From Candidatus Bathyarchaeota archaeon (GTDB lineage Archaea > Thermoproteota > Bathyarchaeia > 40CM-2-53-6): a stretch of 64,000 bases of DNA. The position numbers were made by a program, and so were the translations under genes. Where the stretch lies: positions 544,001 to 608,000 of the forward strand of contig CAVSBL010000002.1 in NCBI GenBank assembly GCA_963726255.1. The letters run 5' to 3'. The notes under the pieces were generated by a model that did no database searches, was not told where the DNA came from, and was given only the letters and a program-made list of their open reading frames with translations. Numbering within the stretch: the first letter of the stretch is position 1; the number at the start of each line of letters is the position of its first letter. This document shows positions 44,794 through 51,731 of this stretch, one piece after another.

Positions 44794-45768
44794 CTACCGT
44801 CTTGCGAGTCGCTTATTGACTAACTTGCGGCCGGCAGAGTAAGGGTCGATTTTGTTCGCCGCTACCTGTTTCATGATTTTCCGGAATGTTTCTGACGATG
44901 CCATTTCCTTCAGCGATATGTCCTCAAAGTATTGCTGGGCTGCATCGAGCACTTCGGATCGCAACCAATTCTCATCTGCCCTGCGTGATCCAACTGATTC
45001 TTTTACGTACTTTGAGTGTTGGTTTATTGCTTCTATAAGCCCCGTAACTCCTTCTCCCGACCTTGCAATAGTCTTCAAGACGCGGGGTCGCCAACCGGTA
45101 ACCGGTTCGGCCATCATGACCATTTGGTGAATTTGCTGGGCCGCTCGTTCCGCATTTTCCATATCGGCCTTATTGACGACGAAGATGTCACCGATTTCCA
45201 TAATGCCCGCTTTTAATGCTTGAATCTCATCGCCTAACCCGGGTGCGGTTACGACGATTGTGGTATGGGCGAGTTCTTTTACGTCGACATCGGATTGGCC
45301 CGCTCCAGCTGTTTCAACGATAACGTAGTCCATTGCGGTTGCGTCTAAGATTCGAACCGCGTCTTCTGTTGCCCTGGCGATTCCGCCGAAATGGCCGCGA
45401 GTAGCCATGCTTCTAATGAACACTCGAGGATCTGCTGCTAGGTTTCCCATCCTAATTCGATCTCCCAGCAAGGCACCACCTGTTATCTGACTTGATGGGT
45501 CAACGGCTACGATTCCAACTCTGCTGCCAGCATCTCTGTATCGCTCTGCAAGTTGTGCGATGAGCGTGCTCTTTCCGCAGCCTGGGGGGCCCGTTATGCC
45601 GATAACCTGAGCCTTGCCCGCACGCCAATACAGGCTAGAAAGAATCACAATTCTTGAACGGGGATCATTCTCGGCTGTTGACATTAGCTGGGATATGGCA
45701 CGCCGGTCGCCGTGTACAGCTTTTTGAATTAGTCTTTCAACGGGTGATTTCGTATGCGGCTTGGGCAC
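44794..45768 (-). CDS. meaB: MeaB/ArgK GTPase, B12-mutase chaperone
   Basis: GPPGCGKS, DPSS..TGGALLGDRIRM, RSMATRG, ETAG.GQS, NKAD. Confidence 0.95.
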   Translation of the reverse strand: MPKPHTKSPVERLIQKAVHGDRRAISQLMSTAENDPRSRIVILSSLYWRAGKAQVIGITGPPGCGKSTLIAQLAERYRDAGSRVGIVAVDPSSQITGGALLGDRIRMGNLAADPRVFIRSMATRGHFGGIARATEDAVRILDATAMDYVIVETAGAGQSDVDVKELAHTTIVVTAPGLGDEIQALKAGIMEIGDIFVVNKADMENAERAAQQIHQMVMMAEPVTGWRPRVLKTIARSGEGVTGLIEAINQHSKYVKESVGSRRADENWLRSEVLDAAQQYFEDISLKEMASSETFRKIMKQVAANKIDPYSAGRKLVNKRLARR

Positions 45769-45792
45769 GAATGTGAGCGCCTCGTCATTTTC

Positions 45793-47381
45793 CTAGATGA
45801 TCGTCTTGGGATGGAACTCTCCATACTCTTCTCTTATGACATCGCTTATTTCGCCAGTAGTAGCCTTAGACCTCACGGCGTCGAATATCAAAGGTATTAC
45901 GTTGATGTTCCGCTCAAGAGCATTCTGAAGCTTTCTGAGGCTACGAAGCAGCTGAGTTTTCCGACGGTTTCGTCTGAAAGCTTCTGTGCGGGAAATCTGC
46001 CGACGTACTACCAGGGGGAGATCTTATGAATCTTGATTTGATACGGTTTCGGGTCAACATATACGTTGACCCCAACAATTTTGATTGCGCCAGATTCTAT
46101 TCCAATTTGCCTCTTGAAAGCGCTATCGCGAATCTGCTTTTGAATATACCCACTCTGAATCGCTTTAACAGATCCTCCCAGTTTTTCAACTCGACCTATT
46201 TCAGCCCGGGCCTCATTTTCCATCTGGCTCGTGAGGTATTCGAGGTAGTAGCTTCCGCCCAAGGCGTCAACTGTCTTCGTAACACCACTTTCGTGGGCAA
46301 TTATCTGCTGCGTTCGAAGGGCTATTTTCACGGCTTCTTCTGTAGGCAGGGATAACGCTTCGTCAAGGGAATTTGTGTGCAGCGACTGTGTTCCCCCTAA
46401 GACTGCCGCCAGAGCTTGGATGGCTACTCGGACGATGTTATTCTGCGGTTGCTGGGCAGTGAGCGTTTCTCCGCTGGTTTGCGTGTGGAAGCGTAATTTC
46501 ATCGCCTCCGGGTCATTTGCGTGAAATTCCTCTTTCATCATGTGTGCCCATATGCGGCGGGCTGCCCGGAATTTGGCTACTTCTTCTAGGAAATCGTTGT
46601 GGCATGCAAAAAAGAAGGACAGATGCGGCGCGAACTCGTCGATCTTCAACCCGCGTTGGATGCAAGCTCTCACGTACTCCTTTGCGTTCGCAAATGCGTA
46701 AGCGAGTTCTTGGACCGCGCTTGAGCCGCTTTCTCTGATGTGATATCCGCTTATGCTGATCGGGTGCCACATCGGCATTCTCTTGGCGCAAAATTCGATA
46801 ATGTCCACGGACAGCCTCAACGATTGCTCGGGAGGAAAGATGTAGGTATTGCGCGCTATGTACTCCTTGAGGATGTCATTCTGTGTCGTTCCACGCAGTC
46901 GTCCAAGCGGGACTCCCTGCGATGTTCCGACCGATGCGTACATTGCTAACATTATGGCAGCCGTGGCGTTGATGGTCATCGAAGTACTGATCCTTCCAAG
47001 GTCGATTCCCTGGAAGAGTAGTCTCATGTCATTCACAGAACTGATCGGTACTCCTACCCGACCGACTTCTCCTTCAGCCCGAGGGCTGTCGGAATCATAG
47101 CCCAATTGAGTTGGAAGGTCAAAGGCAACGCTAAGCCCCGTTTGTCCTTGTTTAATCAGGAATCTGAAACGCCGATTCGTAGCCTCGGCGCTGCCAAACC
47201 CGGAATATTGCCTCATCGTCCAAAGTCGGGAACGGTACATCTCGGAGTAGATTCCGCGCGTAAAGGGGAATTTCCCCGGTTCGCCCAAATTGCGTTCGAG
47301 GTACCGTGGGTCAGAATCCCTTTGGTCGTAGAACTTTTTCACTGCAAAGCCCGAAGCAGAGAAGATCCTTTCTTCTTTCAA
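45793..47381 (-). CDS. mcmA: Methylmalonyl-CoA mutase large subunit; 1-nt frameshift at 46014-46018
   Basis: TMRQYSGF (Tyr), QNDILKEYIARNTY (Arg), SGYHIRE; shifted frame continues to ATTGEISD..YGEF. Confidence 0.9.
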
Positions 47382-47500
47382 AGTTGGACGAACCTCCTAG
47401 TGGACCTAGCACGTATATGACTTTGAAGGGAAAAGCCCTCAAATCACCCAAAAGAACATTAACGCCCATCTTCTGAAGTTTCTAAGTTCGTGTGGAACAA

Positions 47501-49261
47501 ATGCCGCCGAAGAGAAAAATGAATTACTGGGCGAAGAAAGTTGAGCAAATAGTAGCCGCGAGAAAACGACAAGGCCCACTTTACGATCGCAAGCAGCTTC
47601 GTTCGATAGTTGAAAAACAGCGCAAATGGAAAGAAGGCACGCTAAAGAAATGGTTGGCGAAGGCGCCCGAGCGCAAGGAAGAATTCGAGAACCCGTCCGG
47701 AATCCCCCTAAGACGGATATACAGTCCTACGGACGTGTCGTACCAAGCTTATTCCGAGAACGTTGGACTCCCGGGCGAATTTCCATACACCCGCGGGGTC
47801 CACCCAACCATGTACCGGGGCCGGCTATGGACTATGCGAATGTTCTCCGGTTACGGTACTCCCGAGCAAACCAACGCACGACTCAAGTACCTTCTGAAGG
47901 AAGGCGAGACTGGACTGAGCATTGCTTTCGACATGCCGACTTTGTATGGCGTTGACGCAGACCATCCAAGGGCTGAGGGAGAGGTTGGCAAGTGCGGTGT
48001 TTCGGTATCCTCACTTAGAGACATGGAAGTGGTCCTCGATGGCATTCCGCTCGATGAAGTCAGCACTTCAATGACGATCAACGCGCCTGCTTCTGTTCTA
48101 ACCTGTATGTATGTTGCAGCCGCTGATGAACGCGGGATAGCGCCGAAGAAACTGCGCGGCACGGTGCAAACCGACATTCTCAAGGAGTATGCAGCCCAAA
48201 AGGAGTGGGTGTACCCACCCGAAGCTCACCTCAGAATCATCCGCGACATGATTCTGTACTCCACAAAGCACCTCCCACAATGGAACTACGTCAGCGTAAG
48301 CGGATACCATATTCGCGAAGCGGGTTCAAGTGCCCTACAGGAATTGGCTTTCACTTTGGCCGATGGGTTTGCCTACGTTGACCTAGGACTGCAAGCTGGG
48401 TTGAAAGTAGACGATTTCGTCCCCAGGCTATCCTTTTTCTTTAACTGTGGTATGGACTTCTTTGAAGAGATTGCGAAATTTCGGGCTGCCCGACGGGTTT
48501 GGTCTAAAGTTCTCAAAGAAAAATATAATGCGAGAAACCCCAGGTCAACGTTAATGCGGTTTCACACTCAGACCTCAGGCGTGTCTTTGACATGGCAACA
48601 ACCACTCAACAACATTGTAAGAACTACTATTGAGGCCTTAGCCGCAGTTTTGGGCGGAACACAATCATTGCACACGAATGCGTACGATGAGGCATGGGCT
48701 CTACCTACAGAGCAAGCCGCTCTAATTGCCCTGAGAAGCCAACAACTCTTGGCTGAAGAGACCGGGGTTGCTGACGTCATTGACCCCCTCGGTGGATCAT
48801 ACTATGTTGAATGGCTAACGGATGAAATGGAGCAGCGAACATACGAGTATCTTGCAAAAATCGAGGGCCTCGGCGGTATTCTGGCTGCCATCAAGACAGG
48901 TTTCATTCAGAGGGAAATCGCAGATACTTCATACAAGTATCAAAGGCAGATGGAAGAAGGCAAAAGGGTTATTGTGGGAGTTAACGCCCACCAAATGAAT
49001 GAAGCATCTCCTATTGAAACGCTAAGAATCGACGAAAAGATACGCAACAGCCAAGTCGAGAGGTTGAAAGAAGTCAAGAAAAACAGGGATGCTACAGCAG
49101 TGAAAAACTCTTTAGAAGAACTCCGCTTATCTTTCCTGGATCCTGATTCGAACTGCATCTACCCGATGCTTAAGGCCGTAAAATCCTATGCAACATTAGG
49201 AGAAATTGTGGACGTTGGAAGAAGGGTGTTCGGGGACTGGAAGGAGCCCTCGATACTGTGA
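47501..49261 (+). CDS. B12-dependent acyl-CoA mutase large subunit, isobutyryl-CoA-mutase-like
   Basis: TMRMFSG (Phe), QTDILKEYAAQKEW (Gln), SGYHIRE. Confidence 0.85.
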   Translation: MPPKRKMNYWAKKVEQIVAARKRQGPLYDRKQLRSIVEKQRKWKEGTLKKWLAKAPERKEEFENPSGIPLRRIYSPTDVSYQAYSENVGLPGEFPYTRGVHPTMYRGRLWTMRMFSGYGTPEQTNARLKYLLKEGETGLSIAFDMPTLYGVDADHPRAEGEVGKCGVSVSSLRDMEVVLDGIPLDEVSTSMTINAPASVLTCMYVAAADERGIAPKKLRGTVQTDILKEYAAQKEWVYPPEAHLRIIRDMILYSTKHLPQWNYVSVSGYHIREAGSSALQELAFTLADGFAYVDLGLQAGLKVDDFVPRLSFFFNCGMDFFEEIAKFRAARRVWSKVLKEKYNARNPRSTLMRFHTQTSGVSLTWQQPLNNIVRTTIEALAAVLGGTQSLHTNAYDEAWALPTEQAALIALRSQQLLAEETGVADVIDPLGGSYYVEWLTDEMEQRTYEYLAKIEGLGGILAAIKTGFIQREIADTSYKYQRQMEEGKRVIVGVNAHQMNEASPIETLRIDEKIRNSQVERLKEVKKNRDATAVKNSLEELRLSFLDPDSNCIYPMLKAVKSYATLGEIVDVGRRVFGDWKEPSIL

Positions 49262-49293
49262 AGTTTGGAGGTGGGACAATCTCGACAACACGG

Positions 49294-49736
49294 TTGACGA
49301 CCAAGAAAATTCAGCAGAGAAAGATTAGGGTGCTTGTGGCAAAGCCCGGGCTCGTGTGAATCAACGGCTAAACGGGCATGACCGTGGCGCCCTCGTCTTG
49401 TGTAGGGCCCTCCGAGATGCTGGTATGGAGGTCATCTACGCCGGACTCTTAGCCGGCCCAGAGCAAGTTGCTCAAATGGCCATAGACGAAGACGTTGACG
49501 TTGTTGCGATGAGCTTGCTCAACGGCGCACACATGACCGCCTTCCCGAAGGTCGCAAAGGCACTCAAGGAACATCAGGCAGGCGACATCCTGCTTGTAGG
49601 GGGCGGCATTATCCCTGAAGAGGATAAACCGAAACTCGAGAGATTGGGTATAACGGGGAATTTCGGCCCAGGCACCTCTCTGCAGACGATCATCAATCAC
49701 ATAGTAGGACGCGTTCGGAAGGAACGTTGGAAGTAG
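49294..49736 (+). CDS. Cobalamin-binding small subunit of acyl-CoA mutase, interrupted by a 17-nt putative intron; 141 aa if spliced (start uncertain)
   Basis: KIRVLVAKPGL|DGHDRGA..LRDAGMEVIY.G..SLL.GAH..GGGIIP. Confidence 0.92.
49355..49371 (+). other. Putative BHB mRNA intron (TGTGAATCAACGGCTAA)
   Basis: Exon stem GCCCG/CGGGC, helix GGCT/GGCT, bulges CGT and AAA; excision gives CTC GAC GGG CAT (L-D-G-H). Confidence 0.88.
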
Positions 49737-49753
49737 CCGTTCTATTTAGCCCG

Positions 49754-49990
49754 TCAGCTTACCTTTTCGAGATGTTCAAATTCTAGCATGGAGCCAGTTC
49801 GATTTGATTTTTTGTTTGAAAACCACGTGCACTTCGTCGCCTACGGCGACTTGACCCTTTGTCTTGTGAACTATGCCGCCATGGGAGGGAAAACGGACCA
49901 GCGCGACTGTGACTGGTTCTGAGAGATTCGGATATGAGGGTATCTTTGAACGCTTTTCAGGTCTCGAGACAATCTCTTCCTGCGTAACCT
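49754..49990 (-). pseudogene. Remnant of a DUF35-type OB-fold domain
   Basis: EPVTVALVRF..HGGIVHK...VAVGDEV.VVFK..(shift)RTGSML; no start and no Zn ribbon. Confidence 0.5.
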
Positions 49991-51276: not shown

Positions 51277-51731
51277 ATGGGAGCATCAATAATGAAAACG
51301 CCCACCGAAAAACCTGGTTTCGTTCGGGACGAGAACGGATTCATAATGCCGACCGTAGAGAACTTCTACAAGTATTGTGGCGAACGGAAGCTCATGGGCG
51401 TCAAATGCAAGGGATGTGGTGAAATCCTTTGGCCCCCTCCGGCATATGCCCGAAATGTTTCTCTTACAAAGTTGAGTGGACGGAATTCAAGGGTAAGGGA
51501 AAGCTTCTAACATACACAATCATTCACTTTCCGCCAAGCCAATTCGTGGCGCTCGCCCCATACGCCGTTGGCATACTCAAGTTGGAAGAGGGCCCTCAGC
51601 TGCCGGGCATGATAAAGAACCTCAAGCTAGAAGACCTGCGGATTGGAATGAACCTTGAGGTCGATTTCGAAGGTTCCGTCCCTAAGGAATGGCCTCGTTG
51701 GCCGCGCTATTTCTTCAAGCCGGTGAGTTAG
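51277..51731 (+). CDS. DUF35 Zn-ribbon/OB-fold thiolase partner; 1-nt frameshift at 51433-51437
   Basis: One extra C gives CKGC-x10-CPKC, then G.G.LLTYT, PYAVG..LEEG. Confidence 0.9.

Follow-up and report, generated by a model that had tools for sequence, protein, structure and literature searches.

A probable 17-nt bulge-helix-bulge-type pre-mRNA intron in the gene for the cobalamin-binding small subunit of an archaeal acyl-CoA mutase

The window considered here, a stretch of 64,000 nucleotides (nt), corresponds to positions 544001-608000 of contig C2 in an archaeal genome of 2.42 Mb distributed over 5 contigs (G000). On its forward strand, the gene for the B12-binding small subunit of an acyl-CoA mutase is interrupted by a 17-nt insert, at positions 49355-49371 of the window, that sits between the G and the AC of the Asp codon in the DxHxxG motif. 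This insert is very probably an archaeal pre-mRNA intron of the bulge-helix-bulge (BHB) or relaxed bulge-helix-loop (BHL) type. An intron of this kind, removed by an EndA-type endonuclease, had been proposed from the letters of the window alone (hereafter the sequence-only reading), and the proposal is strengthened by four observations: inserts at this very position in 20 species, selection acting on both exons, the lack of a start codon proper to exon 2 in 17/20 orthologs, and an RNA contig from which the insert is missing.

The frame upstream of the insert is open from 49264 and reads ...KIRVLVAKPGLV until it meets a TGA stop at 49357-49359, inside the insert, and the downstream open reading frame (ORF), which encodes 126 amino acids (aa) from GTG 49356, reads MNQRLNGHDRGA... 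Deletion of 49355-49371 yields CTC GAC GGG CAT, that is L D G H. All three parts of the interrupted gene lie on the forward strand. Exon 1 (49294-49354) consists of 20 codons, (M)TTKKIQQRKIRVLVAKPGL, followed by the G of the Asp codon; from the sequence we infer its start at TTG 49294, which has a counterpart (ATG, GTG or TTG) 9-12 codons ahead of [KR]IR in most orthologs from the genus of the window (g1). The intron itself (49355-49371), TGTGAATCAACGGCTAA, contains the in-frame TGA, and exon 2 (49372-49736) provides the AC of the Asp codon, continues with GHDRGA... and ends with a TAG stop at 49734-49736. The predicted spliced product is 141 aa long. Exon 2 alone matches the B12-binding domain PF02310 (E 6.2e-21) from profile position 11 only (positions 11-115), and the uninterrupted homologs P0003 and P0010 match it at positions 2-114 and 2-115, respectively, and read KPGLDGHDRG. 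By comparison with these homologs, the full PF02310 domain, with strand beta-1 and the Asp-x-His-x-x-Gly motif, would be obtained only after excision. Two predictions of the sequence-only reading are borne out at this point: the unspliced frame does stop after KPGL-V, at the TGA of 49357-49359, and excision of 49355-49371 does restore the DxHxxG motif, as LDGH within KPGLDGHDRG.

The RNA around the insert can be drawn as a succession of short helices and bulges, all given here in forward-strand coordinates. The 5' strand of the outer helix, GCCCG (49344-49348), belongs to the Lys, Pro and Gly codons of exon 1 and pairs with CGGGC in exon 2 (49373-49377). The central helix of 4 bp is formed by GGCT in exon 1 (49349-49352) and GGCT in the intron (49366-49369); its pairs are G.U, G-C, C-G and U.G, two of them being G.U. 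The 5' bulge, CG/T (49353-49355), has its predicted cut (marked by the slash) after 49354, in agreement with the gap of the RNA contig, and the 3' bulge, AA/A (49370-49372), has its own after 49371. Between them lies an inner hairpin, GT-GAATCA-AC (49356-49365), with 2 bp and a 6-nt loop. The coordinates, pairings, bulges and mini stem-loop previously claimed for 49344-49377 are exactly those found in the sequence. The resulting order is a helix (5 bp), a bulge (3), a helix (4 bp) and a bulge (3), plus the 2-bp hairpin, and two 3-nt bulges on opposite strands with a 4-bp helix between them are what characterizes an archaeal BHB intron. Qualifying the motif as canonical was slightly generous, however: this description holds for the bulges and the 4-bp helix, but less so for the inner helix, which is limited to 2 bp here and is weak or absent in a second genus (g15, see below). 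Cuts at 49354/55 and 49371/72, between the second and third base of each bulge, yield CTC GAC GGG (LDG), and the same rule holds in 20/20 orthologs in spite of their different insert lengths. At a 17-nt spacing, this exact geometry occurs at 127 of the 2,363,725 positions of the C2 forward strand (5.4e-5), the real site being one of them; with such a rare geometry, its coincidence with the sole excision that restores both the frame and the Asp codon is unlikely to have arisen by chance. The minimum free energy (MFE) fold of 49338-49383 reaches -16.3 kcal/mol (z -2.2, with 8/200 shuffles as good). It retains the outer helix, the AAA bulge and three of the four central pairs, and closes the 5' bulge by pairing CGU with ACG.

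The distribution of the insert was explored in 41 relatives and then in 59 genomes of the family, 46 of which have the small-subunit gene; the site was read in 32 loci. An insert occupies the identical position in 20 of these 32 loci, representing 20 species in two genera, with 13 of the 15 genomes of g1 and all seven g15 genomes examined being insert-bearing. The other 12 loci, 2 in g1 (L011 and L012) and 10 in g2, g3 and g14, are devoid of insert. Inserts are 16, 17, 18, 19 or 23 nt in length, and all three classes modulo 3 are represented. Each has a variable interior and brings an early stop 2-4 codons on (20/20), including the 18-nt inserts, which contain an in-frame TAA or TGA; in 20/20 the predicted cuts leave ...CTN G upstream and AC GGG downstream. 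With lengths of every class modulo 3 and a premature stop in each insert, KPGLDGHDRG is recovered solely by exact excision between G and AC. More distant loci of bacterial and archaeal origin were read by means of the regular expression GH[DE]xG in 78 of 80 cases (L067 and L084 fell outside this reading), and 78/78 carry an uninterrupted K[PLVA]GLDGHDRG, so that exact excision recreates a universal motif. In a FastTree tree of exon 2 nucleotides (32 leaves), insert-bearing sequences are paraphyletic; this tree left out two of the three outgroups (L048 and L049) and the partial L019, its branch support was not weighed, and no conclusion is drawn from it on one versus several gains of the insert.

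Alignment of the 20 insert-bearing sequences revealed that 89.5% of structure cells are paired, as opposed to 18-34% after sliding of the 3' partners. In the central helix, 80/80 cells are paired, changes on its intron strand being confined to G or A opposite U and to C or U opposite G, with pairing kept in every case. Pairing extends to 90% of cells in the outer helix, which has 4-5 bp in 19/20 species and 3 bp in G007, and to 74% in the inner helix, with 2-5 bp in g1. The second position of the 5' bulge is an invariant G (20/20), and the third base of the 3' bulge, A, is likewise invariant together with the C that follows. MFE folds keep the outer helix and leave the 3-nt 3' bulge open in 20/20; the full BHB coincides with the MFE in 4/20, lies within 1 kcal/mol of it in 7 more, and is 3.4 kcal/mol above it in G000. 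The seven g15 introns (L034-L040), 16-19 nt long, keep the outer helix, the 3' bulge (AAA in G070 and G065, AGA in the other five) and the central helix, with little or no inner helix, which places the 5' site in a loop and gives a relaxed, BHL-like form. The strict form, hBHBh', is said to have been defined by Marck and Grosjean in 2003 by its flanking helices h and h'; judged by these flanking helices, some species have the strict motif and others a relaxed, BHL-like one. Across g1 and g15, this one site offers a natural gradation from the strict BHB to the BHL form.

Codon usage at the borders of the insert points in the same direction. The Pro codon is CCC in 19/20 insert-bearing loci and in 0/12 insert-less ones, and the Gly codon after Asp is GGG in 19/20 and 2/12, respectively. 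The helix-building codons CCC and GGG are combined with the post-Asp GGG in 18/20 insert-bearing loci, versus 0/12 insert-less loci. Although these counts come from related species and are not independent, such a choice of codons supports the predicted outer helix.

Both exons bear the mark of purifying selection. When the insert-bearing species (20) are compared, pS is 0.537 and pN 0.081 over the final 11 codons of exon 1, for a pN/pS of 0.151, against 2.4 in a control frame shifted by one position; in exon 2, pN/pS is 0.119 over 112 codons. These low values in two exons that lie in different DNA frames indicate that both pieces are kept as coding sequence. In the frame of exon 2, an ATG, GTG or TTG lies between the nearest stop and GHDRG in only 3/20 orthologs, the other 17 having no start of their own, which speaks against independent translation from within the insert. 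As far as can be judged from sequence, the insert is neither an artefact nor the sign of a dead gene.

RNA and DNA assemblies from four sequencing runs (X1, X2, X19 and X20) were compared over positions 49000-49800. An Illumina metatranscriptome (X20, record 18) provided a 185-nt contig with a depth of 4 that spans 49232-49433 and from which exactly 17 nt are missing at 49355, as expected of the splice junction that the sequence-only reading proposed to look for in RNA data. This contig carries the variants 49266 T>C, 49308 A>G and 49344 G>A, which correspond to the G021 allele (L002), and the genomic DNA of G021 has the insert; variants 49266 and 49344 are also found in insert-bearing contigs of X2 and X19. 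The insert is retained in the DNA runs X1, probably the source run, and X2, the latter with independent contigs from another sediment study. Intron-less RNA thus occurs alongside insert-bearing DNA, but as a single contig, with DNA and RNA coming from different samples. The three outcomes that had been named beforehand as counting against an intron can be viewed in this light. The detection of unspliced transcripts only describes X19 but not X20, with its spliced contig; a translation start at GTG 49356 is disfavoured by the start codon found in the exon 2 frame of only 3/20 orthologs; and, as to an absence of the insert from raw reads, both DNA runs keep it.

The host is equipped for this type of splicing. 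Its genome encodes two EndA paralogs, of 188 aa (in the region of C2 748279-748530) and 187 aa (in the region of C2 1451759-1451998), that account for its 2 PF01974 matches, each ORF combining PF01974 and PF02778, and one RtcB (E 8.5e-172), thereby providing the splicing endonuclease and RNA ligase that a BHB intron calls for. The first paralog has its best PDB match in the EndA alpha subunit of Aeropyrum pernix (3P1Z_B, E 7.9e-41) and carries a Lys aligned with K44 of the Crenarchaea-specific specificity loop. According to excerpts of PMC3241643, K44 and this loop confer a broad specificity that includes BHL motifs. A search of C2 using ARAGORN with its intron option marked an intron in 31 of 35 tRNA calls; seven introns exceed 500 nt, which is implausible and makes this list a noisy one, the plausible tRNA introns ranging from 6 to 119 nt. 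These calls suggest a genome rich in tRNA introns, fitting a broad-specificity EndA.

The same genome also has an insert in cbf5 (C2, 296359-297328), 19 nt long (L128, 1483-1501) and located between the G and the AT of the catalytic Asp codon (GGTLD/PKVTG). Built in the same way as the insert of the B12-binding gene, it displays a central helix (CCCU with GGGG), bulges AG/A and UA/A, and a GAC...GUC hairpin. Among 29 relatives of the order, the cbf5 match is split near profile position 70 in 26, and the other 3 have one match with a single internal stop; the insert sequence itself was read in G000, and it conforms to the cbf5 intron of the literature. The published cbf5 intron, as described in part of PMC2738675, is situated between letters 1 and 2 of the catalytic Asp codon, and its cuts fall between the second and third bulge residues. 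The same portion of that paper lists no cbf5 intron for Cenarchaeales, Nitrosopumilales or Korarchaeota, and an order-wide cbf5 intron may thus widen its known distribution. Two naive scans of C2 for a BHB combined with a restored ORF revealed no excess over expectation (291 sites versus 288.5 expected on the forward strand, and 561 versus 643). A looser, earlier version passed about 22% of random sites, and the second scan recovers the cbf5 intron; as such scans cannot separate true introns from noise, nothing is concluded on other genes. In the window itself, a search against Rfam at the gathering cut-off gave no match and ARAGORN predicted no tRNA.

Based on these elements, the fate of the transcript may be pictured as follows. 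GCCCG-GGCU of exon 1 would pair with GGCU of the intron and CGGGC of exon 2, which would leave CG/U and AA/A exposed as bulges of 3 nt, one on each strand of a 4-bp helix. A two-paralog endonuclease, presumably alpha2-beta2, would cut between the second and third base of each bulge, and RtcB would join the exons. The mature mRNA, ...AAG CCC GGG CUC GAC GGG CAU..., would then be translated into the 141-aa protein with its universal KPGLDGHDRG loop and the His that ligates cobalt, while unspliced RNA would give a 21-residue peptide only, the His-bearing part being untranslatable in 17/20 orthologs. That EndA and RtcB are the acting enzymes, and that the protein is made, is what we infer.

Several observations weigh against an intron of this type. 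In G000, the inner helix has 2 bp, and constraining the 37-nt stretch to the BHB fold costs 3.4 kcal/mol relative to the MFE; g15 introns have a weak inner helix or none. The 20-species alignment offers no true compensatory covariation, with 1 pair changed on both sides and shuffles that match the observed scores; since exon strands are held by coding, the structure is to be regarded as conserved rather than proven by covariation. Insert-less relatives exist, and uninterrupted proteins with 85-93% identity are common in metagenomes, the nearest one (P0003) being 93% identical with a different N-terminus; a scan of metagenome contigs for the junction motif returned at least 120 loci, those listed being at most 74% identical to G000 and therefore uninformative on insert-less alleles close to it. 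The RNA support comes down to a single assembled contig with a depth of 4 in one small library, and the sample of X20 might conceivably hold an insert-less DNA allele. Finally, the Nanopore RNA of X19 is only insert-bearing (record 6, 229 nt, no gaps), a form that could be pre-mRNA or carried-over DNA.

Some of these points might suggest that the insert is removed from RNA by another nuclease and ligase pair, or by a self-processing activity that recognises the conserved hairpin. The canonical BHB is not the MFE fold in G000, the g15 versions have no clear inner helix, and EndA is linked to this site through sequence. Yet the cut sites of the RNA contig exactly match the BHB rule of cleavage between the second and third bulge base, as given in excerpts of PMC2738675, and the cbf5 intron of the same genome follows the same rule. 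Moreover, the EndA of the host is of the crenarchaeal type and has the Lys of the specificity loop; enzymes of this type are reported in part of PMC3241643 to cut relaxed BHL motifs. Group I and group II introns, for their part, are much larger than 17 nt. Removal by other enzymes is therefore regarded as very unlikely.

Slightly less credence still is given to a gene that is dead or truncated in insert-bearing genomes, the X20 contig then deriving from an insert-less strain and splicing being absent. Insert-less alleles do exist in the same genus (L011 and L012) and in metagenomes, and the RNA of X19 carries the insert throughout. A dead gene is, however, at odds with purifying selection on both exons, in two frames and over 20 species, with insert helices that are kept while the loop sequence drifts, and with the status of this gene as the sole PF02310 gene of the genome, beside two mutase large subunits. 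As for an insert-less strain, the X20 contig has the polymorphisms of G021, whose DNA bears the insert, and none of the seven database proteins at 95% identity or more is uninterrupted.

The remaining alternatives leave the insert in the mRNA. Ribosomes might skip it, either through a bypass like that of gene 60 in phage T4 or through a programmed frameshift; a stop 2-4 codons past the junction in 20/20 orthologs, together with a hairpin, is indeed reminiscent of gene 60, and GGG is present on both sides of the insert. A hop from GGG to GGG, the only matched codons, would nonetheless delete Leu-Asp-Gly and destroy the DxHxxG motif; lengths of 16, 17, 18, 19 and 23 nt, in all classes modulo 3, fit no fixed +1 or -1 shift; and the RNA contig is physically devoid of the 17 nt. 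Both bypass and frameshifting were thus rejected as exceedingly improbable. Translation from GTG 49356 into a 126-aa B12 domain without beta-1 and Asp, exon 1 being a separate small ORF or a leader, is hardly credible either: this GTG does open a 126-aa ORF and gene callers do predict 126-aa proteins (P0002 and others), but an in-frame start codon occurs in 3/20 orthologs only, the 126-aa form loses Pfam positions 1-10 that are matched by uninterrupted homologs, and exon 1 encodes a conserved IRVLVAKPGL under purifying selection.

The interpretation of the insert as a BHB/BHL intron has consequences for the surrounding genes. Directly upstream, on the forward strand, lies an acyl-CoA mutase large subunit of 589 aa (47492-49261; PF01642, E 1.4e-218, profile positions 3-512 of 512), and a second mutase large subunit is encoded on the reverse strand (45793-47381; PF01642, E 2.8e-198, profile positions 3-449 of 512). 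PF02310 has one match in the whole genome, the interrupted gene, so that the description of this gene as the only B12-binding subunit of the cluster extends to the entire genome. With a sole PF02310 gene beside two PF01642 large subunits, any activity needing the small subunit depends on splicing. The suggestion that splicing gates both mutases is thus a logical dependency only, and no regulation was seen. A more ambitious proposal is that the extent of splicing sets all adenosylcobalamin-dependent acyl-CoA mutase activity, as a post-transcriptional switch, and that this order, with its conserved cbf5 intron, submits more mRNAs than known to splicing of the tRNA type; we consider it improbable, even if the spliced (X20) and unspliced (X19) RNA forms that coexist in nature would be in keeping with splicing that is partial and conditional. 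For the cbf5 intron, too, excerpts of PMC7714728 give the function as unknown.

Other irregularities were observed in the vicinity. The second large subunit is distributed over an ORF at 46008-47381 that continues in another frame at 45793-46023, the shift occurring 76 codons before the end. At about 46010, G000 is 1 nt short compared with G021, G015 and G014 (...TCCCCCT-GG... versus ...TCCCCCGCGG...), a deficit that probably reflects an indel of the assembly and not biology. A ChsH2-like gene (zinc ribbon and OB fold) adjoining a thiolase-like gene is similarly split at about 51441, over ORFs 51277-51510 and 51429-51731; there, G000 is 1 nt short compared with G021 and G014, and a CGCGG-like string is adjacent, as at about 46010. 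Two 1-nt gaps within 6 kb suggest systematic indel errors in the assembly. On the reverse strand, 3' of the second mutase gene, positions 45600-45790 are occupied by an open frame, ...VERLIQKAVHGDRRAISQLMSTAENDP..., which we take, from a comparison by eye, to resemble the N-terminus of a MeaB/ArgK-type mutase chaperone.

The interruption is also reflected in protein databases. All seven database proteins at least 95% identical to exon 2 are shortened forms of 126 or 103 aa (the sequence of P0002 alone was read). More broadly, many of the gene calls P0002-P0121 are shortened, with 126-127 aa from in or near the insert or 103-113 aa from an internal Met, and in P0005, P0020 and P0031 the 3' part of the insert is translated as well (...RPNGHDRG). 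This pattern points to a gene that is systematically mis-annotated in public metagenome contigs. These comparisons place the host only roughly. Among named proteins, the nearest, at 88% identity, bears the label Candidatus Bathyarchaeia archaeon, and one at 77% that of Conexivisphaerales; named genome contigs at 62-72% identity are mostly metagenome-assembled genomes (MAGs) of Thaumarchaeota or Nitrososphaerales, and the best contig match (76%) is a MAG labelled only 'bacterium'.

Among known systems, the closest is the cbf5 pre-mRNA intron of Crenarchaeota, reportedly described by Watanabe in 2002 and by Yoshinari in 2006. As in the cbf5 case presented in excerpts of Yokobori 2009 (PMC2738675), the intron of the B12-binding gene is short, BHB-like and located within a coding sequence, is cut between the second and third bulge bases, and splits a functionally critical Asp codon between its first and second letters; a hetero-oligomeric EndA, gain or loss among relatives and often relaxed motifs are further points in common. 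In contrast to cbf5, the host gene encodes a metabolic cofactor-binding subunit instead of an RNA-modification enzyme, the lineage is another one, with closest named relatives labelled Bathyarchaeia, Conexivisphaerales or Thaumarchaeota, and the evidence is metatranscriptomic rather than from reverse transcription polymerase chain reaction or an enzyme assay. The B12-gene intron was therefore not assigned to the cbf5 class proper: its host is a PF02310 subunit, and the cbf5 of the same genome has its own, separate 19-nt intron. Excerpts of PMC7714728 (2020) describe the Haloferax volcanii HVO_1309 intron, for which the substrate of the splicing endonuclease is also an mRNA, and not a tRNA or rRNA. 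That intron lies in the 5' untranslated region (UTR), unlike the B12-gene intron, which interrupts a codon.

Archaeal tRNA and rRNA BHB introns share the motif, a 4-bp helix flanked by 3-nt bulges, and presumably also the enzymes, and a length of 17 nt falls within the 6-119 nt range of the plausible tRNA introns called by ARAGORN in this genome. The present intron differs from them in that it lies in an mRNA, where one strand of the outer and central helices is coding and where excision must be base-exact to keep the frame. The bypass of T4 gene 60 works on an mRNA that retains its gap and has matching codons for take-off and landing. Common to both systems is an ORF interrupted by a short non-coding gap that contains a hairpin and an early stop, but a gap-less RNA exists for the B12-binding gene, and its matching codons would delete part of the motif. 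The splicing of HAC1/XBP1 is a stress-regulated switch that relies on RtcB-type ligation. It is comparable in that a short mRNA segment is removed by protein enzymes, independently of the spliceosome, with a change of frame and RtcB-type ligation chemistry; it involves a different nuclease and recognised structure, and is a proven stress-regulated switch. This unconventional splicing by IRE1 and RtcB is mentioned in part of PMC13149111; otherwise, the portions of that paper, PMC4090602 and PMC3082918 that were consulted hold nothing bearing on the present intron.

The mRNA BHB cases named in excerpts of PMC7714728, PMC6379350 and PMC12397907 are cbf5, for coding sequences, and the HVO_1309 5' UTR; no mutase or B12-binding gene figures among such cases in these excerpts or in full-text searches, supplements aside, and PMC12397907, from 2025, still cites, in the part consulted, only cbf5 work for splicing within coding sequences. 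The insert thus appears to be a true pre-mRNA intron of the BHB type, with a host gene and a lineage that are both new, and of a splicing type described for essentially one other archaeal protein gene. Its host is a second, unrelated and metabolic gene, found in mesophilic archaea of sediment and peat, in at least 20 species and with RNA backing, so that the cbf5 case is not unique. Interrupted genes in such genomes are hence not to be dismissed as pseudogenes. With about 40 nt, this site also represents a compact natural substrate for the study of relaxed BHB recognition in mRNA, and a well-defined case in which a possible regulatory role of mRNA splicing in archaea can be addressed.

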